Positions 7,942 through 29,902 of a stretch of 32,000 bases of DNA are shown piece after piece. Location of the stretch: assembly GCA_031316235.1 (NCBI GenBank), contig JALDRA010000001.1, positions 2,490,001-2,522,000 of the forward strand. The letters are read 5' to 3'. The translations under genes and the position numbers were made by a program. Under the pieces are notes generated by a model. The model saw nothing but the letters and a program-made list of their open reading frames with translations. It was not told the origin of the DNA and did not search any database. The stretch's first letter is position 1; each line of letters begins with the position of its first letter. This DNA comes from Candidatus Scalindua sp. (GTDB taxonomy: Bacteria; Planctomycetota; Brocadiia; Brocadiales; Scalinduaceae).

Positions 7942-8667
7942 ATGAAAAAAACCATTTTTACAATTCAGGTAGTAACGTTATGCGTGTGTCTTACCATTTC
8001 AAATCTCGGCTGCGGGGGTAAGCTGAATGATGCGACAGAGCACTTCGATGTCGGTGTACTCCACTGGAAGCAGGGAAGGATTGATGATGCAATTGAAGAA
8101 TACAATAAAGCTGTCGAAATCTATCCAGACTTCGAAATGGCACATTATAATCTCGGTTCGATGTATTATGAAAAGGGAGATATTGGTCTTGCAATAGAAT
8201 CCTTCAAAAAGGCTGTTGAAATAAAACCTGACCTGGTTGAAGCACACTCCATGCTTGGTGTTGCATACGAAATGCACAATATGTTTCAAGATGCGGTCGA
8301 AGAGTATCAGAAGTCCCTGGAACTCAGCCCGAACCAGGCGGGAACCCATACCAACCTGGGAAACCTCTACTACAAGATGGAAAAATATGATAAGGCAATT
8401 GAGGAGTATAAAAAAGCTATCAGCATAACCCCTGACTTTGCAGAGGCTTATAATAACCTTGGGTTTGTCTACTATGAGACCCAGAAATACAGCTTTGCCA
8501 TTAATGAATTTAAGAAGGCCGTAGAGCTGAAACCGGATTATATAAGCGCACATACGAACCTCAGCCTGGCATACAGAAAAGTAGGTCTGCATGATCAGTC
8601 TAAAGAAGAAATTGAAATTGCGAAACAACTTGCAATGAAAGAACAGGCAAACCAGGGACAACGATAA
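7942..8667 (+). CDS. TPR-repeat lipoprotein
   Basis: 241 aa. Signal peptide with a lipobox-like ISNLGC. At least six 34-aa TPR units (AIEEYNKAVEIYPDF, AIESFKKAVEIKPDL, AVEEYQKSLELSPNQ, AIEEYKKAISITPDF, AINEFKKAVELKPDY). Confidence 0.85.
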   Translation: MKKTIFTIQVVTLCVCLTISNLGCGGKLNDATEHFDVGVLHWKQGRIDDAIEEYNKAVEIYPDFEMAHYNLGSMYYEKGDIGLAIESFKKAVEIKPDLVEAHSMLGVAYEMHNMFQDAVEEYQKSLELSPNQAGTHTNLGNLYYKMEKYDKAIEEYKKAISITPDFAEAYNNLGFVYYETQKYSFAINEFKKAVELKPDYISAHTNLSLAYRKVGLHDQSKEEIEIAKQLAMKEQANQGQR

Positions 8668-8699
8668 CTCGATTGTATGGAAAGTCCCATTCTAAAGGT

Positions 8700-8867
8700 A
8701 AATAAATCATTGGGTTCCCAAGTCAACATTGTGCTGGTTGGATATTCTTTGATTAAGGATTCTACAAGTTGCTTTGCGTGGTCTTTCTTCCAGACATATT
8801 CTCTCTGGAAAGCAGGTACAAAAAGCTGTATTTCATCAATATTTTCAAGGATGCTGAGAATTTTCAT
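8700..8867 (-). pseudogene. Truncated N-terminal fragment of a DUF262 (GmrSD/type IV restriction-like) protein
   Basis: MKILSILENIDEIQLFVPAFQREYVWKKDHAKQLVESLIKEYPTSTMLTW matches the DUF262 N-terminal (I)PxFQRxYVW...L(I/V)xS...(Y)P motif. Only about 50 aa are plausible. The rest of the 90-aa ORF runs antisense into the 3' end of the TPR gene (8595-8667). Full-length members are several hundred aa. Confidence 0.6.
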
Positions 8868-9011: not shown

Positions 9012-9233
9012 TTAACTGGTTAAGTCATTTTCTAATTCATTAAGCAGTGTACGTGCCTGCTTAATCATTTCAAGGGCTGTTTCTTGTGAGTAACAAAATC
9101 TGTCGCGGGGGCCTTCATATAAAACGAGGCAAATACTACCTTTCAAGATTGGTTGCTTTGTGAATTTGCAGGTACGGAGTGCTTTGGCGATTTGAATCTC
9201 AGAGCGTTTGATCATCTGTTTCATTTTAGGCAT
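9012..9233 (-). CDS. Small hypothetical protein (73 aa), third gene of the nuclease-helicase cassette
   Basis: Its ATG (9233-9231) overlaps the helicase stop (9228-9226) in an 8-nt ATGCCTAA overlap, implying translational coupling. K/E-rich, no motif recognised. Confidence 0.55.
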   Translation of the reverse strand: MPKMKQMIKRSEIQIAKALRTCKFTKQPILKGSICLVLYEGPRDRFCYSQETALEMIKQARTLLNELENDLTS

Positions 9234-11061
9234 TTTTCATTTTTCCTCTTACAAGAGCCGATAGTTTGTCAACAATATCAGGAGAAGCGCTTAATGCACG
9301 TTGAAGCTGCTCTATACTTGCAGATGGCCGCCCTCCAGATTCCACACCCATGATTTTGTTTTGTTCTGCGCTAGCAAGCCTTATAAGGATTTCCGAATTG
9401 TGGTTACCGGCAAAGCAACTTAAGAGGTCCCTACCCATATGTTGTATACCGAGGCGATTAATAACCGTATCTGCGATTGAACGTGCTTCTTGCTGTAACC
9501 TTCCTTTCATAGCCTCTCTCCGCTCTTGAGGTTGGATAACCGGGTTAAATGCAGCTATCTGACCATCATTATGAGCGGCAACCAAGCGTCTACGCACAAT
9601 ATCTTCTGTAAGTCCAAATTCGCTAGGGTCGAATCCCTTTTCTCTGATTGTGTTGAACAAGTCACTAACCATTACATCATCAATTTTCTTTAGATAACCT
9701 TTGCGCTGATAGTTCTCCACAACCTCATTTAAGACGCGCATAAAAGGTCTGAGAGTAAGTCTTGGCGAGCTCGATTCATCACCCTCAATTTCAAGCTCAC
9801 CTTCCAGATATTCACGGAAGAACTCTTGATCATCCTTATCAAAGTCGGTGAAATCGCTCCACCAGCGGTCGTCATTCAAACCGATATGGGATACAAGATA
9901 TACATGGTTGGCAGGAGAATACGGCGTGTCTGGCTGAGCAAGCCGTAAAATTCGGCCAACGAATTGAATGTAAGGTGAAAGACTACGGTAAGGCCGGAAA
10001 ACTGCGGCCACGGACAACGTTGGCAGATCATAGCCTTCACCTAGGATGTTAACCTGCACGACTACGTCAATGACTCCGCTGCGCAGGCTCGCTTCTATAC
10101 GTTCTCGTTCTTCTGAAGAAAGCTGGCTATGAAGCACCTCAACGCGTAATCCATGCTCATTGTAGAGCGCAGCTACTTGTGTGGCATGTCGGATAGAACA
10201 GGCAACAGCAATTATTTGACGGGGTGTACCGAGGCTACGAACATGGTGCAGTTGTTGTACTGAGGCGTTTACGACACTGCGGTTGCACTCTTCTGACATA
10301 GCGACACCCCTGCTAAACCAGTCATTTTCACGCATCTTCATGATATCTTCGATGTTCAACGTTTTGGTTTCACCCTTAGCGGTAAAAGTGATTTCAGTAG
10401 GTTGAACAAAAAGAGCATCTATCTGAGATATGAAGCCCATAATCATAGACCGGGCATATCCAAATCTGTAAACGCGCTCACCGGATACCACCTTGCCGTC
10501 TGATCGCATAGGAGTAGCGGTGAAGGAAATAACTTTTGCTTGGTTGAAATACTCAAACAGGCGGGTCCAAGATTCAGCGACATTGTGGTGGCCCTCGTCG
10601 ACTAAAATCATATAGAAATAGTCAGTAGGAAGAGCTTCGTACCATTTATTGCGAGTTCCTGAAAACTGATGAATATTCGCAACGACAATATGTGCAGCGT
10701 CACAGTCATGAATATTGGCTCCCGTCTTAAGTTCCGAGAGATAAGGACCATACTTGGGGACAAAAACACCTCTTTTTGTGTAAAAGCAATTTGGATCACT
10801 AATATTCAACTCGCGACGTATGTTTTCACGTATCGTTAGGTTTGGGGCTATAATAAGAACGCGGCCTTTAGAAATACCAAACGGAGTTAGACCCATCAGG
10901 CCGGTTTTTCCGCAACCGACAGGAAGCTGCACGTAGCATGGTTCATCGCTACTTTGGAAGTGTTCTCGAATAGCAAAGTAGCCATCAATCTGTGGTTCAC
11001 GAAGTGAAGGGTTGTTCCAGATACCAACTTCTGTTTCGAAGAAAAATTGTTCTATATTCAT
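9226..11061 (-). CDS. SF2 helicase, ResIII/COG1061-like (DExH), with an uncharacterised ~200-aa C-terminal region
   Basis: Motif I LPVGCGKTG, motif II LVDEGHH, motif III FTATP, motif V VNILGEGYDLP, motif VI QFVGRILR. The start is placed at ATG 11061 (MNIEQFFF...), 1 nt after the stop of the upstream gene (TAA 11065-11063). The track's 21-codon extension to 11124 overlaps that gene and is hydrophobic nonsense. Confidence 0.85.
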   Translation of the reverse strand: MNIEQFFFETEVGIWNNPSLREPQIDGYFAIREHFQSSDEPCYVQLPVGCGKTGLMGLTPFGISKGRVLIIAPNLTIRENIRRELNISDPNCFYTKRGVFVPKYGPYLSELKTGANIHDCDAAHIVVANIHQFSGTRNKWYEALPTDYFYMILVDEGHHNVAESWTRLFEYFNQAKVISFTATPMRSDGKVVSGERVYRFGYARSMIMGFISQIDALFVQPTEITFTAKGETKTLNIEDIMKMRENDWFSRGVAMSEECNRSVVNASVQQLHHVRSLGTPRQIIAVACSIRHATQVAALYNEHGLRVEVLHSQLSSEERERIEASLRSGVIDVVVQVNILGEGYDLPTLSVAAVFRPYRSLSPYIQFVGRILRLAQPDTPYSPANHVYLVSHIGLNDDRWWSDFTDFDKDDQEFFREYLEGELEIEGDESSSPRLTLRPFMRVLNEVVENYQRKGYLKKIDDVMVSDLFNTIREKGFDPSEFGLTEDIVRRRLVAAHNDGQIAAFNPVIQPQERREAMKGRLQQEARSIADTVINRLGIQHMGRDLLSCFAGNHNSEILIRLASAEQNKIMGVESGGRPSASIEQLQRALSASPDIVDKLSALVRGKMKNA

Positions 11062-11062
11062 G

Positions 11063-11662
11063 TTATTCACTATTACCCTCGTTGTTATATAAACCGCGAT
11101 GAACCAAATCACGGAGGCGATCATAAGACATTACGGTTGTACCGTCTGTAGAGAGAGCTCGATATGTCTTGGCCTGTTTCGGGTCAAGAGAACCGCGCCG
11201 ACCAATAATGACATATGATGGACAAATTGCTTCGATATCTTTCAGTCCAAGCTGATCACGCGCGTAAGCAACATTATCCGTTAGCCACATCCGCCAGTCA
11301 CGAATCTGTTTAAGCGCTTCTGCGAGTTTCTTCGCGGGCAACCCTGACTTTGTTAAAACCCTTTCATTTGGACTCTCCAATTCGACCATTGTCCAGCGGA
11401 ATCCCGAAGAAGTTCGAGAAGCTAAAAGAAAGTCTGGTACAAACTCAGCTCCAAATCTGGGTCTATCAAGACACCAGTATGTACTCCCAGGTGGGGCTAG
11501 CGGTGCCAGAAGATTTGCATACGATGCAAAGAGTGTTTGCAGGGGACGCTCATCAAACGCATCACTCAAAACACGGTCGAACACGTCAACTATTGCAGAC
11601 GCTGTTTCACGGCCAACAGACGCATGACTTTCATTCCATTTTTCAAGAACTGGTTCGTTCAT
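11063..11662 (-). CDS. Minimal PD-(D/E)xK-type nuclease-fold protein resembling the Shedu SduA nuclease domain (DUF4263-like), lacking a large N-terminal domain
   Basis: 199 aa with ERPLQTLFASYANLL, RFGAEFVPDFLL, RWTMVELESPNERVL, EALKQIRDWRMWL, SYVIIGRRGSLD and TVMSYDRLRDL. The order and spacing match my recollection of the DUF4263 profile. The usual E-x-K reads E-L-E-S here. Confidence 0.6.
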   Translation of the reverse strand: MNEPVLEKWNESHASVGRETASAIVDVFDRVLSDAFDERPLQTLFASYANLLAPLAPPGSTYWCLDRPRFGAEFVPDFLLASRTSSGFRWTMVELESPNERVLTKSGLPAKKLAEALKQIRDWRMWLTDNVAYARDQLGLKDIEAICPSYVIIGRRGSLDPKQAKTYRALSTDGTTVMSYDRLRDLVHRGLYNNEGNSE

Positions 11663-11676
11663 CCATTTTATTTTCC

Positions 11677-11705
11677 ATTATGAAAGGTAGACTGTTTGTT
11701 GACAT
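11677..11705 (-). promoter_or_regulatory. Sigma70-like promoter candidate for the nuclease-helicase cassette
   Basis: On the minus strand: ATGTCA (plus 11705-11700), 17-nt spacer, CATAAT (plus 11682-11677). The -10 element ends about 15 nt upstream of ATG 11662. Confidence 0.3.
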
Positions 11706-11808: not shown

Positions 11809-13302
11809 TCAGTTGTTTGCCTTATTTAATGTCCCTAAAATTTCCCGGAAATTATTTAGTCCGGCTTCTAGGTTCTCAATTATCTCTTCCGCCAGTTCAT
11901 CTGGTTCAGGCAGATTATCAAGGTCGGTCAGGCTTTTGTCTTTGAGCCAGAAAAGATCAAGGCTGGTTTTGTCACGAGTGGTTAATTCTCCGTATGTGAA
12001 TTTACGCCAGCGGCCTTCGGGGTTGCTCTCCTCGTTCCATGTATCTTTACGATCATGACGGTTTTCAGGATTGTAACACTTTACGAAGTCTTGCAAATCG
12101 TCATACCGCATAGGTTTCTTTTTCAGGGTATGATGAATGTTTGTGCGATAATCGTAATACCAGACTTCTTTTGTCCAAGGGTCGGGACTGGCCTCGCGGT
12201 TATCAAAGAAGATCACGTTCGCTTTCACACCTTGGGCATAAAAAACACCTGTGGGAAGTCGTAAGATCGTGTGCAGTTCTGTGTTTTGTAGCAGCTTACG
12301 GCGGATGGTTTCACCTGCGCCGCCCTCAAACAGTACATTGTCCGGTACAACGACAGCCGCTCTACCAGATATTTTCATCATAGTACGGATATGCTGAACA
12401 AAGTTAAGCTGTTTGTTTGATGTGGTTGCCCAAAAATCCTGACGGTTGTAGGTTAAATCTTCCTTGTCTTGCTCGCCTTCTTCGTTGGTAAAACTCATAG
12501 AACTTTTCTTCCCGAAAGGGGGGTTAGCTAATACATAATCAAAGCGATCTCCGCTATCAGCTACAAGCGCATCATTGGGGGAGATCATGCTTTCCCCGTC
12601 AATCTCACCGATATTGTGCAAAAACATATTCATCAGACACAGGCGACGGGTATTGGCCACAATCTCATTTCCGGTAAAGGTTTCGTGTTTCAGGAAAGCT
12701 TTCTGGTCTTTATCTAGAGAATGGTTATCCGGGTTCGTGACGAAATCATAAGCGGTCAGGAAAAAGCCTCCTGTGCCACAGGCCGGGTCCGCAATAGTTT
12801 TGCCTGGTTCGGGGCGCATACACTCCACCATGGCTTTAATAAGTGCTCTTGGGGTAAAATATTGGCCTGCACCTGACTTGGTGTCCTCGGCATTCTTTTC
12901 TAGTAGTCCTTCATAAATATCGCCTTTGGTATCGGCTCCCATCGTTACCCACTCTGTGCCATTAATCATATCTATGAGACGAAACAGCTTGGCAGGGTCT
13001 TGAATTTTGTTTTGTGACTTGGTGAATATCTGGCCTAGCATTCCTTTCTTTGTTGCCAATTCGCGTAACAAATTCACGTAATGAACTTCCAATTCTGCAC
13101 CCTTTTTGGATTTAAGGCTCTGCCAATTATATTCGCCAGGAATGCCAACATCGCGGCTATAAGGCGGCCTGGAATACTCATCTGCCATTTTCAGGAAGAT
13201 GAGATAGGTGAGTTGTTCCAGATAGTCACCATAGCCCACACCATCATCCCGCAGGGTTGTACAAAAACTCCATACTTTAGATACTATTGCTGCTGTGTTC
13301 AT
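11809..13302 (-). CDS. hsdM: Type I restriction-modification system, N6-adenine DNA methyltransferase subunit
   Basis: 497 aa. HsdM_N-like N-terminus, AdoMet motif I ADPACGTGGFF, catalytic motif IV NPPFG. ATGA overlap with the hsdS stop. Confidence 0.93.
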   Translation of the reverse strand: MNTAAIVSKVWSFCTTLRDDGVGYGDYLEQLTYLIFLKMADEYSRPPYSRDVGIPGEYNWQSLKSKKGAELEVHYVNLLRELATKKGMLGQIFTKSQNKIQDPAKLFRLIDMINGTEWVTMGADTKGDIYEGLLEKNAEDTKSGAGQYFTPRALIKAMVECMRPEPGKTIADPACGTGGFFLTAYDFVTNPDNHSLDKDQKAFLKHETFTGNEIVANTRRLCLMNMFLHNIGEIDGESMISPNDALVADSGDRFDYVLANPPFGKKSSMSFTNEEGEQDKEDLTYNRQDFWATTSNKQLNFVQHIRTMMKISGRAAVVVPDNVLFEGGAGETIRRKLLQNTELHTILRLPTGVFYAQGVKANVIFFDNREASPDPWTKEVWYYDYRTNIHHTLKKKPMRYDDLQDFVKCYNPENRHDRKDTWNEESNPEGRWRKFTYGELTTRDKTSLDLFWLKDKSLTDLDNLPEPDELAEEIIENLEAGLNNFREILGTLNKANN

Positions 13303-14609
13303 GCGGCTCTGCCTTTCTTAGATTTTTTATTATCTTCTTTTTCAGCCTTAATGCGTTCAAGCAGAACAGAAGCAGGCTCGTCATTCGGATCTTGTTTAAC
13401 CAGCTTTCCTGAGAAGGCTTGTTTCAGGATGGACTGACGAAGAGATTCTGATTTTTGAAGCTGAAAATCTACATCAACTTCAAGTCTATCTATATAAGAA
13501 AACTGATTATTAAGGTATGCAACTGTTTCTTCTTGAGTTTGAGGGTTGGGTATCCATAGCCGCAGCGGCATTAAATCCTTTTGATAGATTGCACATACAT
13601 TGGTTGTTGCCTTCTTCTGGCCACGCAAAGCAGCTCTCATAAGAGGGTTTATTAATTGATAACAAACATAATAAGAGCTTACACCGTCAACGAATCTCAT
13701 CCTCATAATATTATTATTGAAGAGTAACGGTTCAGAAACTTGTTTTACAACACCAGTTTTTCCAACAAGTTCATAGCTATTCCTCGTATTAAGTAGAACA
13801 TCTCCATTTCTAAGACGATATTTTTGGATTTCATCTTCTGTAGCTGCAACATAGACAACATCCTTGGAATCAACGCTGCCATTCATATCAATATTATTCA
13901 TTTTGATATACTTCACACCCAAATCATCGGAGTTTTGTTCTTTTGCAGAACGAACAATGCCTATCAAAGATTCTTTAATAATATCGGCTAATGCCACTTG
14001 CTCATTTTGCGTGGAACAACCTGTAAGTTTACCTTCGAAGGCGTGTTTGAGAACGGCTTGACGGTAGACCTTGAGTTGCTCACGGGCGGTTTTGAGGCTT
14101 TCTATCCCCTTGTCCAGTTCAGAAAACAGCTCTTCAATCTTGCTCACAATCCGCTTTTGTTCGTTGAGTGGGGCAATAGGAAATTCGTAATTCCATAGTA
14201 AGTCGGGATCAACGTGTGGTGTGCCGCTCCCCTTAGCTCTTGTATTTATTTGCTGGTATTTTGATTGTAAAAAGTAATATGCGTAAGAATTTTCAATCTC
14301 AGGAAAATTAATTCTTACCAATGTGCTGCCTAAAGCACCATGCATGCCTTTACCAACTAAACCGGATCGTGATCCATCCCAGACCATAAGAAAATCAGAT
14401 TCATAACAAAGGCGGCAGTCCTCACCATCAGTCCAACTTTTAACAACTCCTTGTTCAAAAGCTTCAATATCGACATATGGGTATTTAAACTGACTATCTG
14501 ATTGCTCTTTTTGTCTTTTTGGTTTTTTCCCTTTCTCGTTTTCTACAAATTTTCCGAGTGGTACGGTTTTCCATGATTTTGGGTATATATTGCTTGCTCT
14601 TTCCATCAC
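13299..14609 (-). CDS. hsdS: Type I restriction-modification system, specificity subunit
   Basis: 436 aa. Two variable target-recognition halves are separated by the conserved helical spacer PLNEQKRIVSKIEELFSELDKGIESLKTAREQLKVYRQAVLKHAF, with a second conserved helix near the C-terminus (SESLRQSILKQAFSGKLV). The GTG at 14609 or ATG at 14606 overlaps the hsdR TGA. Confidence 0.9.
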   Translation of the reverse strand: MMERASNIYPKSWKTVPLGKFVENEKGKKPKRQKEQSDSQFKYPYVDIEAFEQGVVKSWTDGEDCRLCYESDFLMVWDGSRSGLVGKGMHGALGSTLVRINFPEIENSYAYYFLQSKYQQINTRAKGSGTPHVDPDLLWNYEFPIAPLNEQKRIVSKIEELFSELDKGIESLKTAREQLKVYRQAVLKHAFEGKLTGCSTQNEQVALADIIKESLIGIVRSAKEQNSDDLGVKYIKMNNIDMNGSVDSKDVVYVAATEDEIQKYRLRNGDVLLNTRNSYELVGKTGVVKQVSEPLLFNNNIMRMRFVDGVSSYYVCYQLINPLMRAALRGQKKATTNVCAIYQKDLMPLRLWIPNPQTQEETVAYLNNQFSYIDRLEVDVDFQLQKSESLRQSILKQAFSGKLVKQDPNDEPASVLLERIKAEKEDNKKSKKGRAA

Positions 14610-17377
14610 GCAGCCAACGCCTCATTTAATTCGTTAATCAAGCTATCCATATCATCCCCGAACAGCTTATACATTTTGCCCATGCCGCCATGGGTGTCGA
14701 AGGGATTTGATTCCAGATCATCACGTTCAATATGGAATGAGCTGATGATATGATCACGGATCATGTGCAGCCATTCCATCTGTTCCTTGTTGAATTTCTC
14801 ACCGCCACCACTGTGGTGTTTCATGATCCAGTCCTGGAAATTTTTCCGTACTGTCTCACTATGGCGGGACACGGTTTTATCTATGCCGCAGGCTCGGCGT
14901 ATGAGGGAGATCAGGGCGGTTAGCTCACTCACCGGGTTTTCACCTTTATAATCGTCAAGATGGGCGTAGGCACGCCATACGCGCAACGGGGCAAGCCTTG
15001 GTTTATCGTCTCTGATTTTATCCATGAGCTGTTTAATCATGGCATAAGTTATGTTTTGTCGTCTGTGGGGCTCACTATAGAAGATCGTCAGGGCTTCGAT
15101 CTCATCGCGGTTTTCTTGTAAGTACGTTTCAAAGTCCTGTACCATTGTTTTCGCGTTTTCTTCTGCATCACCATCCCATTCGGCAAGGATCACATTATCA
15201 AGATTGTCATGATCTATGATTTGTTCTTTGTCCCGGCGGATTGAATCGAGTAACTCTATCAGCTCGCCGTTAAAGACATTCGCTGCATTTTTGACCAGCT
15301 CGTTTTGTGCCTTCACTCGTGTTTCTTCTTTTGGATCCTGGCCTTCGGAGATTTGCTCAATATCTCTGGCCTTGGTTTCTACATTATCCGGGTCAATGGC
15401 AGAAAGCAGGTCGCCGACAATATCGGACAACTCCATGCCGCCCGCTTTTTCCTTAATTCGTTCAAGGTCTTTGTTATCGAGCTGTTTATTCAGGCGTGAG
15501 AGGCGTCCAGCGAGGGAGCTGACCGTATCCTCATCACTTGCCCCCATCATTACGCCCATGGCCAGGTCTTTAAGGGGCACAGTGGGTTTCGTAATAAGCG
15601 GCTGGCTGGCTGTTTTCAGGGACTTGGTAACACCGACAGCATCCACTATCACATAGTGGGTCTTGGCGCTCTTTGCTGAAGGTGTAACCTTTTTCAAGTC
15701 GTCATAGCCCAGCGTCCGTGTGCCTCGGCCTTTCATCTGCTCAAGGTAATTACGGCTTTTCACATCACGCATAAACATGAGACATTCCAGCGGTTTTACA
15801 TCCGTGCCTGTGGCAACCATATCCACTGTCACGGCAATGCGCGGATTATAATCATTGCGGAATTGCGCTAGAATCGATTTCGGGTTCTCTTTGGTTTTGT
15901 ATGTGATTTTCTTACAAAACTCATTTCCTTCGCCGAATTCTTCCCGCACAGTCTGAATAATATCATCAGCATGGCTATCCGTTTTAGCAAAGATCAGGGT
16001 TTTGGGTAATTCCTTGCGTCCGGGAAATATATCCGGTAGCTTATCTTTGAATGTACGAATGATAGTACGGATTTGATCAGGGTTTACAATATCACGATCC
16101 AGTTGTGTGGCAGTGTAGTTCTCATCTTCGTCTTGACGTTCCCATCGCTTCTTACGGGTGAGTTTTTCCCTGTGCTCTACTTGCTGACCGGCTTTAATTG
16201 TACCACCACCTTTGGTGCGCTCTGTCTCAATTACATAGATTTCATTGCCAACATTCACGCCATCGGCTACGGCCTTTTCGTGATCATATTCACTGACTAT
16301 ATTCTTTTTGAAAAATCCATAAGTGCGGTTATCCGGCGTAGCTGTCAGGCCAACAAGATATGAGTCAAAATATTCCAACACCTGCCTCCAAAGGTTATAA
16401 ATAGAGCGGTGGCACTCATCAATTACGATAAAATCAAAAAACTCAGGTGGTACTTTTTCATTATAGCCGACAGGAACAGGCTCTTTCGGCTTTGTCATTT
16501 GTTCTGCCGGGTTTAACTCTTCCAGTGCTTCATCCAATTCTTCGTCTTTAAGAATGGAATACATGCGTTGTATGGTGCTTATGCACACTTGAGCATCTTT
16601 TGGCACATATGAAGAAGATAATCGCCTGGCAGTGTAAAGCTCTGTAAATTTGCGATTGTCATCGTTAGGAACAAATTTCATGAATTCCTGTTCGGCTTGC
16701 TCGCCGAGGTTCCTTGTGTCTACTAAAAACAGAATGCGCTTGGCATCAGCATGTTTTAAAAGACGATAAATCGAGGTTATGGCCGTAAATGTTTTACCTG
16801 AGCCTGTGGCCATTTGTATTAGAGCGCGAGGCTTATCGTATTTGAAGGATTGTTCCAGATTTTCAATTGCTATAATCTGGCATTTACGTAGCCCTTCATG
16901 GTCGAGGGGCGGCATAACCAGCAAGTGGCTACGCAGGGATTTTTCCTTGCAATACCATTCTTGTAATGTTTCAGGTCTATGGAAGGTGAAGACTTCCCGT
17001 GATCGTGGTTTGGGATCACGCCCATTTGTAAAGCGGGTAATAATGCCGGTGCTTTCATAAACGAAGGGTAACAGCTTACTGTTATTTACCCATTTCAGTT
17101 TTGCCTTGGCATAGTCACCGGATTGAGTTTCGACGGTAGTGATATTTTGCGCTTCCTCTTCTCGCTTGGCCTCGATAACACCCACAGCCTTATTTTCCAC
17201 GAATAAAACATAATCAGCAGGACCAACATCGGTCTGATATTCACGAACCGCAATACCCAGCCCAGCATTAAAATCTATCTTATCTTTGTTCTGAACATGC
17301 CAGCCTGCCTGGGCCAACATAGAATCAATGTTGGCTCTGGCTTTTTGTTCGGGAGTCTGATTAATGTCTGATGTCAT
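14606..17377 (-). CDS. hsdR: Type I restriction-modification system, restriction (helicase-nuclease) subunit, with an EcoEI-R-type C-terminal domain
   Basis: 923 aa. HSDR_N-like N-terminus (ADYVLF...GVIEAK, PD-(D/E)xK). SF2 motifs MATGSGKT, VIDECHRS, GLTATP, QMKGRGTR. C-terminal FNKEQMEWLHMIRDHI...FDTHGGMGKMYKLFG. Confidence 0.93.
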   Translation of the reverse strand: MTSDINQTPEQKARANIDSMLAQAGWHVQNKDKIDFNAGLGIAVREYQTDVGPADYVLFVENKAVGVIEAKREEEAQNITTVETQSGDYAKAKLKWVNNSKLLPFVYESTGIITRFTNGRDPKPRSREVFTFHRPETLQEWYCKEKSLRSHLLVMPPLDHEGLRKCQIIAIENLEQSFKYDKPRALIQMATGSGKTFTAITSIYRLLKHADAKRILFLVDTRNLGEQAEQEFMKFVPNDDNRKFTELYTARRLSSSYVPKDAQVCISTIQRMYSILKDEELDEALEELNPAEQMTKPKEPVPVGYNEKVPPEFFDFIVIDECHRSIYNLWRQVLEYFDSYLVGLTATPDNRTYGFFKKNIVSEYDHEKAVADGVNVGNEIYVIETERTKGGGTIKAGQQVEHREKLTRKKRWERQDEDENYTATQLDRDIVNPDQIRTIIRTFKDKLPDIFPGRKELPKTLIFAKTDSHADDIIQTVREEFGEGNEFCKKITYKTKENPKSILAQFRNDYNPRIAVTVDMVATGTDVKPLECLMFMRDVKSRNYLEQMKGRGTRTLGYDDLKKVTPSAKSAKTHYVIVDAVGVTKSLKTASQPLITKPTVPLKDLAMGVMMGASDEDTVSSLAGRLSRLNKQLDNKDLERIKEKAGGMELSDIVGDLLSAIDPDNVETKARDIEQISEGQDPKEETRVKAQNELVKNAANVFNGELIELLDSIRRDKEQIIDHDNLDNVILAEWDGDAEENAKTMVQDFETYLQENRDEIEALTIFYSEPHRRQNITYAMIKQLMDKIRDDKPRLAPLRVWRAYAHLDDYKGENPVSELTALISLIRRACGIDKTVSRHSETVRKNFQDWIMKHHSGGGEKFNKEQMEWLHMIRDHIISSFHIERDDLESNPFDTHGGMGKMYKLFGDDMDSLINELNEALAA

Positions 17378-17394
17378 ATTATCTTATAAACAAA

Positions 17395-19843
17395 ATATCA
17401 CTACAGCGACACTTTTTTTCGCAGCTTCCGCTGCAATTTTTTGAATTCCTCTATTTTTGTTTTTCTATGAGAACGATAAGCACTATAATTCCTTTTCTGG
17501 TGGTACCTGATAAGTTCAATTACGTATTTTTTATCAAGTGGAATAACCGGCAGAACGGCCTCCAACAGCATACGAGCTTGGGGTAAAGTCAGAGCCGGTG
17601 TTTTTTTTTAATACTCCGCGTATTCTAAGCAAAAATAATTGTGCCAAAAAAACAAACGTCATATGCCTATGCCAGGCGGGCCAGGAACGATGTTCATAAT
17701 CTGCCATGCCTAATTCGCTTTTGCCTTCTTGAAATGATTGCTCGACAGGCCAGCGTAATACACATACACGTATCATTTCTTCAAGTGCCGTCTCTGCCGG
17801 AGCATTGCTGAGGCAGTACTTTATTTCATGTGTTTTAGGATCTTTTCTTAAAAACAGCCATCTTTCATTCTCCGCTGTACTGTCATCGCCTGCAAACACC
17901 CTGGTTCGAGCGACAAATCCATAAATTGGCCCTTTTGCTCCTTCAGCAAGTTGGGCCAGCTTCCACTTTACATTTCCGTCCTGTGCTATATCGGATACTT
18001 TTCTTTCAACTCTCTTCCGGCAAGCTTCACCATCTTGCGTGCTCACTAACACTTTCCGATTCTTTGCTATATCAGCTAGATAAAAAACCTGTGGAGGAAG
18101 ATTTTCTAAAAAATCAGGGCTATTGCCAAATATACTATCACACGTTATCCAACGAAATGGGAACAGCCCACCCGTACTCAATTCAGCAATCATCTCAACG
18201 GCAAGTTCCGGTTTCTTCCTGAATACCAAATTTTTAGGCACTTTGCATCTTTCACGTCTCTCTTTATACTCAGGGTCAAACCACTTTTCAGGCATATACA
18301 GCCGGCGGTCTATCAATCCATACCCCTTCGTACTCGTATATGCCACGTACACTCCAGACTGACAATTTTCTATTTTACCAAGACGGCCACAATATTGACG
18401 AGCGACTCCCACCGATTCCTTTCCTTTTTTCACCACTTCTCTACTATCAAGACTGAGTACTCCATCAGCTTCGGACAATAGTTTTGAGAGTTCCTCTTTG
18501 TGCCGTGAAGCGATAAATTCTCCATCCCACTTGTACTCTCCCATGAACCGTTGCAAGCTTCGTACTGTATCTTTACCTCGGAGTCGAAGTGCTATTGGCT
18601 CTATCGATTTACGATCAAGCTTACTTAATAAACCCTGCAAATAGCACAAGCTCAAATCTTTCTGCTCTTTCCGTCTGAATCCCTCCTCAAACAATGCGTG
18701 ATACTTCTCCAACTCTGTTGCAAGCTTTCCGATATCGCTTGCACTCAATTCAACTCCGGGTTCTACTTCAGGACTCCAGTCCGGGGGACGTACTATCATA
18801 CTGCTTCTCCTTTCCAATGGCAGATTGCTGTAAGGTCTGTTTGAAAGGAGATACTTTCGGGTAAGTAATGGTTCTGTTTTGTCTTGTTTAATCTTTTGTC
18901 TGCCTTGTGGATCTAATACATAAAAATAAACCTCCTTGCTGTTTCCATGGTATATAAATCCTTTCTGCTTTTTACGATAGCCCTTCGTGTTGCCAATTTT
19001 TACCCAGTTAGCTGCCTGATAACACGTTCCTGAAAATTTTGATGGATCGATAAATGTTTCCAGAAATAATAATCGGGTGCCATACTTCTCTACCCAATCT
19101 TTCTGCAATTGTCGGACAACTCGTGATAAAATATGTGATGCAATATTTTTTACCTCTACCCATGGCATGATCAGAAAGCGACTATTGTTTAGTACTTTGT
19201 CTAAAGCCTTTCTGCGCTCCTGCACATTCCAGCCTATGATAATGTCCCTGCAATATAACCGCTCTACTGCGGATTGCCAGCCCAGTGCCGCCACTAATCG
19301 ATCAGAGCTGTATATTAAATACCTTATGTTCTGCCCTACTAATACTCGATAGCCCAAATAGTGATATCTTCTATTGACGTACTTCCATATGCGGCCACTT
19401 TCTTTATCCGTTACGCTCTTTATCTTTAACGGAAGAAACACCTTTATGTTTCCCTTGATTTCTGTGGTATCCAACCTCACATGTTCTAACGGACGTTCGT
19501 TTTTGCATGATGGTGCCCTTTTGGAAGCAGGCAGTTGGATAAGCCCTCTCTCGGACAACGATTGCAGTATACTACGGCATGCACGATCTTTTAGATGTCC
19601 GTTAGCTTGTTTCCATTGCCAATGTTCTGACAACTTGATAGAGATATATACCCGGCCTCGGTTGCCATAGTGCTCTATCAAACCACGTACAACGGCTATA
19701 TCCGCTTCGCTTATTTCCCGGCCTCGAATGACAAGCCTGCGGCCTTCAGGTGGCTTACCCATAAAGTCCTCCTGTACTCTATGGGTGCGAGTTTAACCGA
19801 TTCGCTCAAAAGGCGCAAGAAAAAAATGTCGCTGTAGTGATAT
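17395..19843 (-). mobile_element. Intact-looking insertion sequence (~2.45 kb) with terminal inverted repeats and a single long transposase ORF
   Basis: The left end atatcactacagcgacac (17395-) and the reverse complement of the right end atatcactacagcgacat (-19843) give 17/17 identical nt, followed by a T-run. The outer palindromic ATAT could equally be a 4-bp target-site duplication (17395-17398 and 19840-19843). Confidence 0.85.
17534..19762 (-). CDS. Fusion transposase: N-terminal DUF4338 (Druantia DruA-like) domain + C-terminal IS701-family DDE transposase domain
   Basis: 742 aa. N-terminal ~300 aa: RRYHYLGYRVLVGQNIRYLIY, AALGWQSAVERLYCRDIIIGW, LNNSRFLIMPWVEVKNIASHILS, LLFLETFIDPSKFSGTCYQAANWVKIGNTKGY (DUF4338 pattern). 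C-terminal: LSLDSREVVKKGKESVGVARQYCGRLGKIENCQSGV, WITCDSIFGNSPDF, RWPVEQSFQEGKSELGMADYEHRSWPAWHRHM (IS701-type D, D, E). Confidence 0.8.
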   Translation of the reverse strand: MGKPPEGRRLVIRGREISEADIAVVRGLIEHYGNRGRVYISIKLSEHWQWKQANGHLKDRACRSILQSLSERGLIQLPASKRAPSCKNERPLEHVRLDTTEIKGNIKVFLPLKIKSVTDKESGRIWKYVNRRYHYLGYRVLVGQNIRYLIYSSDRLVAALGWQSAVERLYCRDIIIGWNVQERRKALDKVLNNSRFLIMPWVEVKNIASHILSRVVRQLQKDWVEKYGTRLLFLETFIDPSKFSGTCYQAANWVKIGNTKGYRKKQKGFIYHGNSKEVYFYVLDPQGRQKIKQDKTEPLLTRKYLLSNRPYSNLPLERRSSMIVRPPDWSPEVEPGVELSASDIGKLATELEKYHALFEEGFRRKEQKDLSLCYLQGLLSKLDRKSIEPIALRLRGKDTVRSLQRFMGEYKWDGEFIASRHKEELSKLLSEADGVLSLDSREVVKKGKESVGVARQYCGRLGKIENCQSGVYVAYTSTKGYGLIDRRLYMPEKWFDPEYKERRERCKVPKNLVFRKKPELAVEMIAELSTGGLFPFRWITCDSIFGNSPDFLENLPPQVFYLADIAKNRKVLVSTQDGEACRKRVERKVSDIAQDGNVKWKLAQLAEGAKGPIYGFVARTRVFAGDDSTAENERWLFLRKDPKTHEIKYCLSNAPAETALEEMIRVCVLRWPVEQSFQEGKSELGMADYEHRSWPAWHRHMTFVFLAQLFLLRIRGVLKKNTGSDFTPSSYAVGGRSAGYST

Positions 19844-24979: not shown

Positions 24980-27900
24980 ATGAAGATCCGAAAGACTAGC
25001 ACTTTAAATTTTCAACTATACATTGTTTCAGCAATTTTATTATCTTTATTAACATTGTTGATAGTAATCACGATTAAGAGATCATTTGAAGGAAGAAAAC
25101 TTGCAGAAGAATATGCGATAAAAAATGGAATCAACGGTCATCTTAATGCGGCCGCAGCATGGCAGGCAGTTGAACGCGGGTATGGTGCTACAATTCTCGG
25201 AAGCGGTAAAGGAGATTCTTCTCATCTCTTCCCTCATTTTCTTGAAGTGGGACAGAGAGGGGAAGCAGAAGTCTTGCAGGCTGAAAAACAGATTAAAAGA
25301 CTGTTACGTGTTGCGGGCAGCAAAACATTACAGAGACAATTTGATACGTGGCATAATGGATATGAAGATCTTGCCGGTGCTCGTCCCAAAATTGCTGCGA
25401 ACGACATTTCAGAAGAAGAGTGGTTTTATACTGCAACACTTACCATTAATAATGGATCTCATCTGAGAAATAGTGTCTTCGCTCCGCAGAAAAAAGAGGA
25501 GAAAATACTCTATCTGAATAATGTTATGCGTCTTAACATTACGAGGCTGTGCGAATATGCGGGGCGGGAACGAGCTCTTGTAGGTAATATGATTGCATCG
25601 GGAAAACCTTTTTCCCGGGAGGTCAGTAATGAAATTGAACACTGCCGTTCCATCGTGGAGGAATCACTTAACCAGTTACTCATTTTAAAAGATATTCAAT
25701 TAACATCAACCCGGATGAAACAAGCTATAGAAGATTTTGAGGAAGAGTTCCTGCAGTCATTTGATATTCTGATGGAAGAGGTATTTATTTCAAGTAAAGA
25801 ACAGGAAGAGGAGATAAGAACTTCATCTGTTGAAATTACAAAAAGGAAAGCGATTTTTAGAGAGTATTTATCGGGAATATACAATGATTTACTGAATATG
25901 AGTAACCAGGAAAACATAAAGACATTAGCCAGGGCCTTAAATGGTCAGGAAGATATTGCTCTGTCTGAACATCTGCATGTGGTGGGAAATATGTTTGAAA
26001 CATTTTCCCAGGTAAAAAAGACATTGTGCCGGATTCAGTATCTGGATACATCAGGGTATGAGCGTGTCCGTGTAGATTTTGATGGTAACCTTACGGAAAT
26101 AATTAGTGATATACACCTTCAAGACAGAAGTGACAGAAGTTATTTTACAAAAGCAATACATCTTCTGCCAGGTGAGATATATACTTCTCCCCTTGAGCTG
26201 AATATGGAATATGGCAAAATCGAAATGCCCTATAAACCGGTTATCCGCTTAGCAACACCCGTTTTTGCTGACGAAAAGAGTTCCGGGATTCTTGTCTTTA
26301 ACGTACTGGCAAATACACCCCTTTTCCTGCATAAAATTGCAGAAAATGAACGACAGGGAGACTACCTGTTAGCAAACCAGGATGGTTTTTATCTCAATCA
26401 TCCATATGAGTTGAAAGAGTGGGGAATGATGGCGCTTCTCAACAAGTCGCATCATAATGTACGAATGGACTATCCTGATGTTGCAGAACAGATTCTTTCT
26501 GGAAAAGAGGGAAGTGTCCCTTTGGCTTCAGGTAAAATGCTTGTTTATGAACCGTTTTTTCACAAGATAGATGATAATGCTGATAGTTTCTGGGTCCTTA
26601 TTAAAGAGGTTAAAGCGGTTGAGTATCCGGTCGATGCATCCACCTGGTTCGAGAGAGCAACACAAGCAATAAATAGGGGATTAGCCGTTTCAAATATTGC
26701 CGGTGATGAGGCCGACGCTGTTATAGGAGAGATGTCTTCTGCCGCAAAAAGGAATGTAATAATGAGTTTCCTGATTTTCGTTGCAGCTGTTTCGATTTTT
26801 ATTTTTTATATTCGATGGGTAAGGAATAGAATTCTCAAGCCTGTCGAGAGATTGACTGGGATTACGCAGAGAATATATGAAGGAGATTACACGTTTAAAT
26901 TTGAAGTTAATACAAAAGATGAAATCGGTGTCCTTGCAGATAATTTTAACAAAATGGCAGAAAGGCTCACAAATGAGATCACTGAGCGCAGACGTGGAGA
27001 GGAATTGATCCGAAAGCTGTCCAGCGCAGTCGAACAGAATCCTGCAACAGTGATAATTACCGATGCCAGGGGTACTATTGAATATGTGAACAGAAAGTTT
27101 ACACAATTAACAGGTTACACTCTGGATGAAGTCATAGAAAAAAACCCTCGCATTTTAAGCTCGGGCAAGACAGCACCGGCAGACTACAGGAATTTGTGGC
27201 AGACTATTGTGTCTGGCAATGAATGGCATGGAAAGTTCTGCAATAAAAAAAAGAATGGAGAACTCTATTGGGAATCTGCATCAATTTCACCTGTCAAAGA
27301 TACAGAAGGGATCATTACCCATTTTGTAGCGGTTAAGGAAGACATTACCGAACGAATGAAAGCTGAAAAACGTCTGAGAGCTCAGCATATTGTGACACAA
27401 TTGCTGGCGGAATCTGCTACGATAAAAGAGAAATTTCCCAAAATTATACAGGCAGTATGTACGGCACTGGAGTGGGATCTTGGAGATATATGGATATTTT
27501 CTCAGCTTGACAGGGTGCTGCACTGCTCAGAAATCTGGCATAGTCCATCCATTGATGTATCAGGATTCATTGCAAGGAGCAGGGGAATAACCCTTGCTCC
27601 AGGCGTTGGATTGCCTGGGCGCATTTTTTCCAGTGCTAAAGCAGCGTGGATATCAGACGTTGGAGAGGATGAAAATTTTCCACGGTCATCAGCTGCATTA
27701 AAAGAAGGGCTGCATGGGGCCTTTGGTTTTCCCATTTTGAGCGGTAGAGAGGTACTGGGGGCAATAAGCTTCTATAGCCGTGAGATAAGATCACCGGACA
27801 GGGACACGTTTGATATGATGTCTTCTATTGGTAATCAGATAGGTCTCTTCATTAAGCGCAAACAGGCTGAAGCGCTACTGAAAGAATCAGAGAAGAGGCA

Positions 27901-29902
27901 TCGTAGGCTTATCCAAACAGCACAAGATGCAATTGTCAGCACAGACAAAAATGGATTAATTAGTGTTTGGAATCAATCAGCAGAAAAGTTATTTGGTTAT
28001 TCCAATCATGAAATCATTGGGCAGCCTATAACAACCATTATTCCTGAAACATATAATAAGCAGTGCCAGAATGGTAAGGGGCAGATTATAAGGGGAGGTA
28101 TGTCTAAAAATTCTGGTGAACCGGTAGAAGTTTTTGCGAGGACAAAGAAGGGAATTGAAATACCGATAGCACTGTCCTTATCCATTCTACAGGAGGGAAA
28201 AGGTCAACACATTCTTACGGCTATCATCAGAGATATGACTGAAAGGAAGAAATGGGAAAATGATGTCCATAAATTATCTTGTGCCATTGAACAAAGCCCG
28301 GTTTCTGTTGTTATTACGGATACCAAAGGTAATATCGAGTATGTTAACAAGAAATTCACACAAATAACCGGTTATACTTCCGAAGAAACCAAAGGAAAGA
28401 ACCCAAGAATACTAAAAACAGATGAAAAGAACTCAGAGGAATACAAAGAGCTCTGGGAAACCATTACATCAGGCTATGAATGGAAAGGAGAATTTTCCAA
28501 TAAAAACAAAGAAGGAAAAATCTATTGGGAAACGGCATCTATTTCTCCGATCAAAAACGATAATGGTGATATCACCCATTTTATTGCGGTAAAAGAAGAC
28601 ATATCCACCCAAAAGCAAATGGAAGCAGCTCGCGAACGAGCACACTTACGCCTGGAGAAAATAAACGAAGTGCAACAATTCCTGCTCGCTCCCGGCAGAC
28701 TGGAGACAAAGCTCAAGAAAATCACTGATAGTGTGGTTGAGATGTTTGATGCCGATTTTTGTCGTATTTGGGTAATTCGACCTGGAGATCGTTGCAAATC
28801 AGGGTGTATTCATGCTGCGGTGTCTGATGGTTCACATGTCTGCCGGGATCGGGATCGATGTCTGCACCTCTTGTCCAGTTCCGGGCGTTACACTCATATC
28901 GATGGAGATGTCCATCGTCGTGTGCCTTTTGGTTGTTACAAGATCGGGTTAGTGGCTGCTAAAAAGGAACGAAAGTTTCTGATAAGCGACGTAACGCATG
29001 ACTCACGCATCCATAATAATGAGTGGGCTTCTCAATTGGGATTAGTATCCTTTGCAGGTTATCAACTGTGCCCTACAGGAGATGAAGCCCTCGGTGTTAT
29101 GGCCCTCTTCTCAAAAAATACCATTTCAGGGGATGATGATGAATTGCTACAGGTGCTGAGTCACTCGACTTCCCAGGCAATTCAGGCATCGATAATGGGA
29201 AATTTGATTCAAGACTCAAAGAATAAACTGGAATTTTTACTTTTTTCTATCCCGTATGTAATAATTGAATTGACAAGTGATAATAAGATTAATAGATGGA
29301 ATGAGTTTGCGGAGAAAATCTTTGGAATCGCTGCATCCGATGCCATAGGAAAGACCGTTAGTGAATTAAACCTACAGTTGGATATGGACGTTATTAGTAA
29401 AAAAATTGCATTATGTAGGGATAATGAGAGCGCAGTGTGGATAGACGACAGCAGATACAAACGTACCGATGGAAGTGAGGGCCTGCTTACTGTTACGATA
29501 AATCCAATCAAAAATGAGGACTGTAAACAAACAGGCCAAATTATATTAATGCAGGATATTACAGAACATAAAAAAATTGAGAACCAATTAGTTCAATCAC
29601 AAAAGCTGGAATCGATAGGGCAATTGGCTGCCGGTGTTGCCCATGAAATAAACACACCAACACAGTTCATATCAGACAATACATTCTTCATTCAGGATGC
29701 GTTTAACAAGATATTTACTATCTTGAAGAAGTATTCACACTTACTTGAGATGAATAAGGCCGGATCAGTAACTCCGGAAATGATAAGAGAGATGGATGCT
29801 GCTGAGAAAGGTGTCAAATTGGACTACCTTACTGAAGAAATCCCTATAGCGATTAGTGAAACGCAGGAGGGGATAAAGCGTGTAACGGAAATAGTTAAAT
29901 AA
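24980..29902 (+). CDS. Giant multi-domain sensor histidine kinase, N-terminal 1640 aa up to the end of the DHp/HisKA domain, terminated by an in-frame TAA
   Basis: TM1 (res ~14-32). Extracytoplasmic helical NIT-like region (WQAVERGYGATILGSG; EYAGRERALVGNMIASG). Cache-like region (LQDRSDRSYFTKA..GEIYTSPLELNMEYG..PVIRLATPVF). TM2 (26755-26820) and HAMP. Then PAS1 (~27010-27360), GAF1, PAS2, PAS3 (~28270-28620), Cys-rich GAF2, PAS4. H-box QLAAGVAHEINTP. Confidence 0.85.
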   Translation: MKIRKTSTLNFQLYIVSAILLSLLTLLIVITIKRSFEGRKLAEEYAIKNGINGHLNAAAAWQAVERGYGATILGSGKGDSSHLFPHFLEVGQRGEAEVLQAEKQIKRLLRVAGSKTLQRQFDTWHNGYEDLAGARPKIAANDISEEEWFYTATLTINNGSHLRNSVFAPQKKEEKILYLNNVMRLNITRLCEYAGRERALVGNMIASGKPFSREVSNEIEHCRSIVEESLNQLLILKDIQLTSTRMKQAIEDFEEEFLQSFDILMEEVFISSKEQEEEIRTSSVEITKRKAIFREYLSGIYNDLLNMSNQENIKTLARALNGQEDIALSEHLHVVGNMFETFSQVKKTLCRIQYLDTSGYERVRVDFDGNLTEIISDIHLQDRSDRSYFTKAIHLLPGEIYTSPLELNMEYGKIEMPYKPVIRLATPVFADEKSSGILVFNVLANTPLFLHKIAENERQGDYLLANQDGFYLNHPYELKEWGMMALLNKSHHNVRMDYPDVAEQILSGKEGSVPLASGKMLVYEPFFHKIDDNADSFWVLIKEVKAVEYPVDASTWFERATQAINRGLAVSNIAGDEADAVIGEMSSAAKRNVIMSFLIFVAAVSIFIFYIRWVRNRILKPVERLTGITQRIYEGDYTFKFEVNTKDEIGVLADNFNKMAERLTNEITERRRGEELIRKLSSAVEQNPATVIITDARGTIEYVNRKFTQLTGYTLDEVIEKNPRILSSGKTAPADYRNLWQTIVSGNEWHGKFCNKKKNGELYWESASISPVKDTEGIITHFVAVKEDITERMKAEKRLRAQHIVTQLLAESATIKEKFPKIIQAVCTALEWDLGDIWIFSQLDRVLHCSEIWHSPSIDVSGFIARSRGITLAPGVGLPGRIFSSAKAAWISDVGEDENFPRSSAALKEGLHGAFGFPILSGREVLGAISFYSREIRSPDRDTFDMMSSIGNQIGLFIKRKQAEALLKESEKRHRRLIQTAQDAIVSTDKNGLISVWNQSAEKLFGYSNHEIIGQPITTIIPETYNKQCQNGKGQIIRGGMSKNSGEPVEVFARTKKGIEIPIALSLSILQEGKGQHILTAIIRDMTERKKWENDVHKLSCAIEQSPVSVVITDTKGNIEYVNKKFTQITGYTSEETKGKNPRILKTDEKNSEEYKELWETITSGYEWKGEFSNKNKEGKIYWETASISPIKNDNGDITHFIAVKEDISTQKQMEAARERAHLRLEKINEVQQFLLAPGRLETKLKKITDSVVEMFDADFCRIWVIRPGDRCKSGCIHAAVSDGSHVCRDRDRCLHLLSSSGRYTHIDGDVHRRVPFGCYKIGLVAAKKERKFLISDVTHDSRIHNNEWASQLGLVSFAGYQLCPTGDEALGVMALFSKNTISGDDDELLQVLSHSTSQAIQASIMGNLIQDSKNKLEFLLFSIPYVIIELTSDNKINRWNEFAEKIFGIAASDAIGKTVSELNLQLDMDVISKKIALCRDNESAVWIDDSRYKRTDGSEGLLTVTINPIKNEDCKQTGQIILMQDITEHKKIENQLVQSQKLESIGQLAAGVAHEINTPTQFISDNTFFIQDAFNKIFTILKKYSHLLEMNKAGSVTPEMIREMDAAEKGVKLDYLTEEIPIAISETQEGIKRVTEIVK

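Follow-up and report, generated by a model that had tools for sequence, protein, structure and literature searches.

How is a Shedu nuclease kept in check when it carries no sensor domain of its own? Shedu is treated as textbook single-protein immunity, and about 30% of its homologues lack a sensor. A locus of Candidatus Scalindua sp. (Planctomycetota) raises the question anew. It lies in a stretch of 32,000 nucleotides, hereafter the window (contig JALDRA010000001.1 of assembly GCA_031316235.1, positions 2,490,001 to 2,522,000), where three consecutive open reading frames (ORFs) on the minus strand encode a domain-only Shedu-type PD-(D/E)xK nuclease of 199 aa (ORF1, 11063-11662), a superfamily 2 (SF2) helicase/translocase of 611 aa (ORF2, 9226-11061) and a small basic protein of 73 aa (ORF3, 9012-9233) from a zinc-ribbon-like family without annotation. 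The trio probably represents a form of a known immune nuclease of bacteria that comprises several genes and is as yet undescribed, and on balance we lean towards reading it as the operon of a helicase-nuclease defence module against mobile DNA in which the motor would license the nuclease. It offers a concrete candidate answer for one sensor-less Shedu branch, namely control in trans by an ATP-dependent motor.

The nuclease is a domain-only Shedu by sequence and model

As judged from profile matches and predicted structure, ORF1 is a single-domain DUF4263/SduA_C nuclease, that is, a “Type 2” Shedu, in agreement with what a first-pass annotation had read from the letters of the window. It matches Pfam SduA_C (PF14082) with an E-value of 8e-13 and 49.3 bits (cut-off 27) over profile positions 3-158 of 159, as well as ten PADLOC SduA models, the best at E 2e-16. 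The AlphaFold2 (AF2) model, built with 33 family members, has an α-βββ-α-β core (predicted local distance difference test [pLDDT] 79.7, predicted template modelling score [pTM] 0.80). Its best Foldseek match is the nuclease domain of the Bacillus cereus Shedu (8ti9; E 7e-7, template modelling [TM] score 0.60-0.64), and E. coli SduA (8ps5) and entry 8ti8 are also among the top folds, which range in E-value from 7e-7 to 7e-4 at a TM score of about 0.6; FokI and BamHI are far weaker matches. Neither ORF1 alone nor a 15-sequence profile reached an SduA entry among the PDB chains, and the link to Shedu is therefore drawn from Pfam, PADLOC and fold comparison.

Database proteins of this small family number 188, uniformly about 200 aa in length, and annotation pipelines already name them DUF4263/Shedu. 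ORF1 has no PHROG match and reaches no NCBIfam family above its cut-off. By its sequences the family is a narrow, divergent Shedu branch. The first-pass annotation regarded the lack of an N-terminal domain as unusual, a view that does not hold: 2,286 of 7,687 Shedu homologues are of the domain-only Type 2, and 602 Shedu genes lie within restriction-modification (R-M) loci (Gu et al., bioRxiv 10.1101/2023.08.10.552793). ORF1 and its position beside an R-M operon are thus of an already described kind.

What sets the branch apart lies in its active site. Six residues, E38, Q42, D77, E94, E96 and Q119, are invariant in alignments of 33 and of 15 members. They occupy the secondary-structure positions of the active site of E. 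coli SduA (EcSduA; E226/Q230/D269/E283/K285/Q314) and likewise correspond to motifs I-IV of the B. cereus Shedu. ORF1 has motifs I, II and IV and lacks the motif III lysine: this motif reads E94-L-E96, with glutamate at the lysine position in all 33 and all 15 aligned members, so that the substitution spotted in the single sequence proves to be a family trait. BamHI is active with D94/E111/E113, i.e., with a D…E-x-E site, and by this precedent ORF1 is read as a probably active metal-dependent nuclease. The invariant E-x-E site amounts to a natural experiment on Shedu catalysis.

The helicase and its small partner

ORF2 is, by sequence and model, an intact SF2 motor of the XPB/RadD/ResIII type. 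The mechanical ORF list extends the frame to 11124; the 611-aa start at the ATG at 11061 was adopted because it is used by an identical database protein and aligns with homologues. Pfam finds ResIII (E 5e-23) and Helicase_C (E 6e-15), and the SF2 motifs are all intact (Walker A GCGKTG, DEGH, TAT, QFVGRILR). In a PDB sequence search SauUSI (7clg) ranks best, followed by XPB, RadD, UvrB and HsdR. The best PADLOC match is the motor of a type IV ATP-dependent restriction enzyme (SauUSI-like, mREase_IV; E 1.8e-16), and Foldseek ranks RadD and archaeal XPB highest, for an AF2 model of pLDDT 65 only, which is poor because only close homologues (≥73% identity) were supplied. To judge from these searches and this model, the nearest relatives of ORF2 are motors that track along double-stranded DNA (dsDNA): SauUSI, XPB, RadD, UvrB and HsdR. 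PHROGs return only a generic phage helicase family and NCBIfam no family above its cut-off.

The C-terminal part of ORF2 (residues ~395-611, ~215 aa) is mostly helical and highly conserved. It has no Pfam relative, a PDB search gave nothing significant, and it cannot be assigned to a family, in keeping with the earlier remark that about 200 aa at this end show no recognisable motif. The domain is found solely at the C-terminus of its own helicase family (81 clusters, mostly fragments), and among 1.84 billion representatives no “Rosetta-stone” fusion of it to a nuclease was found.

ORF3 has no match in Pfam, PADLOC, NCBIfam or PHROG, and a PDB search with the small-protein profile gave nothing significant. 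Its family follows the pattern R-x-C ... G-x-x-C-L-V ... Y-(C/S)-x-x-(C/A)-A, then a C-terminal helix; from this pattern it looks zinc-ribbon-like, partly degenerate in the window's clade. The profile gathers 107 database proteins, and any name given to them is “hypothetical”, except for one “polyferredoxin”. BLAST clustering places the small gene behind the helicase gene in 55 or more of 76 non-duplicate loci, and position adds further ones. When the ORF3 family was compared by hhalign with the partners of plasmid helicases that are only 33-40% identical to ORF2, the probabilities were 98.9% and 97.3%. On these sequence comparisons ORF3 is an obligate partner of the helicase. In one locus (L022, 11851-12300; loci of the scan described below are given L numbers) the small partner is fused to a C-terminal XRE helix-turn-helix (HTH) and weakly matches MqsA_antitoxin (E 4e-4); MqsA is a zinc-ribbon plus HTH antitoxin. 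The fusion and the weak match suggest a regulatory or antitoxin-like role for the small-protein family.

Conservation of the three-gene arrangement

The three minus-strand ORFs, their junctions and the peptide motifs quoted in the first-pass annotation are all present in the sequence and its translations. ORF1 ends in TAA (11065-11063), followed by a single C and the ATG of ORF2 (11061-11059), and this junction (11059-11065) is compatible with translational coupling. The ATG of ORF3 at 9233 lies over the helicase stop within an 8-nt overlap (9226-9233, ATGCCTAA). In homologous loci the first two genes overlap by 4-20 nt or are separated by 2-12 nt, and the helicase and small-protein genes overlap by 8-26 nt.

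Homologous loci were collected from one genome per species; 185,579 genomes yielded 168 loci, of which 80 were retained. These are spread over more than ten phyla, among them Patescibacteria, Actinomycetota, Acidobacteriota, Verrucomicrobiota and Planctomycetota. More than 20 non-identical, independent loci from several phyla have the trio in the same order and with ORFs that overlap, a recurrence which argues that the arrangement is no chance juxtaposition, and these lie in defence or mobile contexts, in line with the synteny that had been predicted. Carriers include Bradyrhizobium, Spirochaetaceae, Pseudomonadales, Paracoccaceae, Acidobacteriota, Verrucomicrobiota, Planctomycetota and others, and helicases 73-94% identical to ORF2 occur in Delta-, Gamma- and Alphaproteobacteria, Spirochaetaceae and others. 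In Bradyrhizobium japonicum the trio alone is inserted between guaA and other housekeeping genes.

Within the close clade (helicase at least 60% identical), every case examined has the order nuclease, helicase, small protein, with genes overlapping or nearly abutting. The nuclease gene is present in 21 of the 22 close-clade loci with upstream sequence, including one whose helicase gene is cut by an insertion sequence (IS; L017); further loci (L007/L012 and L023) fall outside the 22, as their sequence begins within the helicase gene. The exception, L016, has an unrelated 192-aa ORF in the nuclease position. Starting in reverse from ORF1 homologues, the helicase gene came next, with the full trio, in four of four contexts, and many ORF1 and helicase homologues agree in the length of their longest contig, as would be expected if they are located on the same contigs. 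Across 22 loci, identity to the window's proteins co-varies between helicase and nuclease (r = 0.91) and between helicase and small protein (r = 0.90), the loci being phylogenetically non-independent. As far as sequence can show it, the three genes form one operon and have been inherited and have diverged together.

These observations bear on the simplest alternative, that the genes are independent neighbours: a self-sufficient Type 2 Shedu that cuts, in the manner of a restriction endonuclease, DNA without modification or with a different one, beside a separate helicase/small-protein pair. Type 2 Shedu has been proposed to be constitutively active and a Salmonella example works alone (Gu et al., bioRxiv 10.1101/2023.08.10.552793); the pair is clearly autonomous elsewhere, as described below, and defence genes cluster in islands anyway. 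The ORF1 family, however, was seen nowhere but directly 5′ of this helicase clade, its ORF overlapping or abutting that of the helicase; it is retained in all but one of the assessable loci at 60% helicase identity or above, co-diverges with both partners and inserts with them as a unit. We therefore think it unlikely that the genes are mere neighbours.

In four independent loci with nuclease and helicase (L002, 3174-4031; L009, 12106-12963; L017, 14548-15405; L088, 10713-11570), the small gene is immediately followed on the opposite strand by a gene for a 285-aa DUF6615 protein, which may be one more gene that travels with the cassette or a defence gene in its own right.

The helicase and small-protein pair without Shedu

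At 33-43% helicase identity the small gene persists and overlaps the helicase stop, and there is no SduA_C gene. Three Shedu-less forms occur. In the first, a MerR/HTH_17 domain of ~70 aa sits at the N-terminus of the helicase and no nuclease gene lies upstream; this form was found in L053 (9791-11845) and about 30 other loci, many of them from Alphaproteobacteria, Acidobacteriota and lineages of the candidate phyla radiation (CPR), and three such loci adjoin complete Hachiman operons. In the second, the helicase has a ~130-aa helical extension and is preceded by a protein of 182-228 aa, family c20, encoded in the Shedu-gene position directly upstream (L046, 8971-9657; L060; L076, 9102-9668). 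In the third, that position is taken by a protein of 229-271 aa, family c14 (L028, 27-716; L030; L036; L080, 65-859), or the helicase gene is preceded by unrelated genes. The c14 and c20 proteins have no Pfam or PHROG match and are candidate alternative partners of the helicase.

The pair also occurs on mobilizable ColE2-like plasmids of ~6 kb from Klebsiella, Salmonella, Hafnia, Serratia and Erwinia, where the rep/primase gene overlaps at its end with the start of the helicase gene. An example is L090, a 5.9-kb Klebsiella plasmid (NZ_CP067049.1), which encodes a 33%-identical helicase and a 77-aa partner at 300-2304. The plasmid version had no match among 5,426 complete E. coli genomes. These copies hint that the pair may serve the plasmid, and they make an easy experimental entry point.

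Since the pair reaches far past the range of the nuclease, the helicase and small protein are the conserved core and the Shedu nuclease is a clade-specific addition. The distribution suggests that a helicase module takes several interchangeable partners, the nuclease being one of them, and not that the helicase is an accessory to Shedu. A broader reading, which we hold tentatively and as less probable than the defence module itself, is that the helicase with its private C-terminal domain and a ~75-aa zinc-ribbon-like protein is the core of a modular, helicase-centred immune family that has so far gone unrecognised. The core would sense foreign DNA, different clades would plug in a Shedu E-x-E nuclease, a MerR HTH, c14 or c20, and horizontal transfer would have carried the core into more than ten phyla as well as onto small plasmids of enterobacteria. 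If this is true, Shedu nucleases are exchangeable effectors and not always self-contained systems.

The plasmid copies also lend themselves to a reading outside immunity, in which the pair serves a RadD-like repair function, or replication or maintenance of mobile elements, with the nuclease as a processing partner. RadD is the top structural match of ORF2 and also the Joint Genome Institute's name for homologues; the coupling to rep/primase, the many loci beside integrases or transposases and the high conservation point the same way. RadD itself was rejected, however, as the NCBIfam model (heli_RadD_YejH) gives 54.3 bits against a cut-off of 720 and the fold likeness is confined to the SF2 core. 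The spread is sporadic, with only 168 loci in 185,579 species genomes across phyla, the neighbours are mostly defence genes, the partner nuclease family is known only from immunity, and to our knowledge ColE2-type replication does not require a plasmid SF2 helicase. We regard such a role as quite improbable, the least likely of the alternatives considered.

Genomic neighbourhood and expression signals

In the window the cassette directly follows a type I R-M operon, and the neighbours of related loci were surveyed. Within about five genes of the 18 other nuclease-bearing loci there were type I R-M methylase (5), YgjP (3) and SIR2_2 (2) genes. Window included, 6 of the 19 nuclease-bearing loci have type I R-M neighbours, and five of the six (the window, L004/L005, L006, L010 and L019) have the cassette immediately behind an hsdM, hsdR or YgjP-like gene and in the same orientation. 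Similar type I R-M adjacency occurs in distant clades (L029, L037). Further neighbours of the trio are Mrr, Type ISP R-M, integrases and IS elements; in L001 the trio lies in the cargo of an integrative and conjugative element (ICE) near an AAA+/S8-protease pair, which we take to be Iet-like. The Shedu-less clades adjoin HamA/HamB, HD dGTPase-like, ThsB_TIR, AAA_15+DUF3696, SNF2, DUF499 and PIN_10 genes and, on a by-eye reading, also SIR2- and HerA-like proteins; the true Hachiman operons among these neighbours are separate systems. Together, the R-M, SIR2, Hachiman, TIR and mobile-element neighbours constitute a defence-island signature.

The recurring adjacency raises the possibility that the cassette is an accessory or back-up of type I R-M, co-transcribed with it and either processing the ends that it makes or relying on its methylation. 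EcSduA senses DNA ends, according to published work, and Shedu has been suggested to complement R-M and BREX (Gu et al., bioRxiv 10.1101/2023.08.10.552793). No terminator-like site was found between hsdM and ORF1, so that transcription may read through from the R-M operon into the cassette. The promoter that the first-pass annotation had proposed for the cassette (11705-11677, minus strand; ATGTCA-17-CATAAT in the 146-nt hsdM-ORF1 spacer) does exist as a weak sigma-70-like candidate, with 9 of 12 matches; on its own it is not above chance, as the region holds 10 such sites versus 6.6±2.5 in shuffles.

Homologous loci lend the cassette's own promoter modest support at the sequence level. Several have TTGACA-like hexamers at a similar distance 5′ of the nuclease gene, and two types of conserved leader accompany the cassette in this position, in one set of L003, L009, L011, L017 and L088 and in another of L005, L008 and L010. 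Leader 1 is a ~60-nt block, GAAACGGGCG…AGACAATGGAACAG…GCAGA; leader 2 has TTGACA…TGCCAAACC. Both may act as promoters or operators, and they speak against dependence on R-M, as does the fact that about two-thirds of the loci have no R-M nearby, among them the clean three-gene insertion, IS- and integrase-flanked copies and the ICE cargo. Moreover, the adjacent R-M systems belong to differing type I families (EcoEI_R_C vs T1R_D3). An accessory role to type I R-M is accordingly doubtful, about as improbable to us as the co-location of unrelated genes. That the cassette is an integral R-M subunit was rejected, given R-M at only 6 of 19 nuclease-bearing loci and the existence of stand-alone insertions.

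Proposed mechanism

In the defence module that we lean towards, the SF2 motor and its small zinc-ribbon-like partner would be the part that engages DNA and regulates. By analogy with XPB, RadD, HsdR and SauUSI, the motor would need ATP to load onto foreign dsDNA or move along it, and would either recruit the Shedu-type nuclease or license it. The nuclease is probably oligomeric, as in solved Shedu structures, and would cut only DNA selected by the motor. The pair could then be the counterpart in trans of the N-terminal sensor domains fused to the nuclease in Type 1 Shedu, with the nuclease as one of several interchangeable modules on the conserved core. A B. cereus Shedu construct without its N-terminal and linker domains is highly toxic and constitutively active (Gu et al., bioRxiv 10.1101/2023.08.10.552793), and the toxicity of EcSduA is limited by its N-terminal domain (Loeff et al.); a lone domain such as ORF1 would hence need control in trans.

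Several points weigh against this mechanism. Type 2 Shedu is able to work alone, as the Salmonella example indicates, and the change of the motif III lysine to glutamate may mean that catalysis is altered or lost. The pair is found without the nuclease, MerR-fused or rep-coupled, so its basic activity needs no Shedu and need not be defence. The conservation of the helicase (73-94% identity across phyla) is unusually high for a defence gene. Owing to the low-confidence model, the fold matches of ORF2 say little past “SF2 motor”, and the neighbour counts cover a few dozen loci in which genes were called crudely, without a genome-wide background.

Other features of the window

The flanks are as the first-pass annotation had described them. 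Directly upstream of the cassette and co-oriented with it, Pfam identifies a complete type I R-M operon (11809-17377, minus strand) made up of hsdR with EcoEI_R_C (14606-17377), hsdS (13299-14609) and hsdM (11809-13302). It is regarded as context and not as a demonstrated part of the system. Downstream, on the same strand, a truncated GmrSD_N/DUF262 fragment of 90 aa (8595-8867) overlaps the 3′ end of a TPR gene that converges on it (7942-8667). The fragment resembles the remains of a type IV restriction gene that has decayed at this edge of the island.

Upstream of the R-M operon, a 742-aa ORF (17534-19762, minus strand) combines an N-terminal DruA (Druantia, PF14236)/Mom-like region with a DDE_5 transposase domain, an unusual fusion that may mark the island edge. 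The remainder of the window holds ordinary planctomycete housekeeping genes. On the plus strand, at 24980-30424, a 1640-aa PAS/GAF/HAMP sensor ORF (stop at 29902) is followed by a 173-aa HATPase_c ORF (ATG at 29903), which is either a histidine kinase split at its catalytic domain or a sequencing/frameshift artefact. The segment 20001-22000, where a DUF2299 gene lies and a GH130 gene begins, has a G+C content of 31-35%, compared with about 39-46% elsewhere in the window.

Comparison with known systems

Hachiman and Helicase-DUF2290 also place the gene of a small PD-(D/E)xK-type effector beside an SF2 helicase that senses the state of DNA, and the cassette is neither of them, as had been surmised by eye. 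Hachiman was rejected since ORF1 has no Pfam match to HamA (DUF1837, PF08878) and its fold match to 8vx9 has an E-value of 0.2, while PADLOC HamB matches ORF2 with E 0.0056 over 40 residues. Helicase-DUF2290 was rejected since neither Pfam nor PADLOC finds DUF2290 in ORF1 or ORF3.

Type I HsdR, type III Res and type IV SauUSI, the group that the ORF2 motor resembles most (PDB 7clg, 3h1t), likewise join a PD-(D/E)xK or other nuclease with a dsDNA translocase. In the cassette, by contrast, nuclease and motor are separate polypeptides, and ORF2 comes without a methyltransferase, specificity subunit, SRA or PLD domain. A SauUSI-like type IV enzyme was rejected because only the motor aligns (ORF2 126-375 with model positions 316-554 of 945, and with 308-546 of 7clg) and Pfam finds no PLD or SRA domain in ORF2. 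Archaeal XPB-Bax1 resembles the cassette in that an XPB-like SF2 motor is encoded with, and bound to, a dedicated nuclease; it differs in serving repair and not immunity, and the likeness is limited to the motor core of a low-confidence model. We know of no relationship between Bax1 and SduA_C.

A parallel in organization is KELShedu, where the Shedu nuclease depends on a second, DNA-binding protein (KELA + KELB; Zhang et al. 2025, PMC12577705). Both have a separately encoded partner for a Shedu nuclease in one operon. The partner in KELShedu, however, is a 12.6-kDa dsDNA-binding protein in a bicistronic arrangement with a 3-bp spacer, whereas here a helicase and a zinc-ribbon-like protein are encoded downstream; KELB (38.6 kDa), moreover, retains an N-terminal region.

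PADLOC v2 has no model for the trio or the pair, and in it ORF2 and ORF3 have no match beyond generic motors. Literature searches on Shedu, DUF4263 or SduA with helicase, three-gene or type I restriction returned no such cassette (Gu et al. being covered as a preprint). The claim of an undescribed split nuclease/helicase system thus stands in so far as the cassette is not a named one; it overrated the novelty of the minimal Shedu and missed the core of helicase and small protein, a module that the trio exposes and that is absent from PADLOC v2, Pfam and NCBIfam. With Type 2 Shedu, ORF1 shares a lone SduA_C PD-(D/E)xK domain of ~200 aa with the Shedu fold, motifs I, II and IV and no N-terminal sensor, and a frequent location in or beside R-M loci and mobile elements. 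It differs from that class in that its family always precedes an overlapping SF2 helicase gene and a small gene and has glutamate in place of the motif III lysine. The minimal Shedu itself is already known; for the pair and the trio no description was found.

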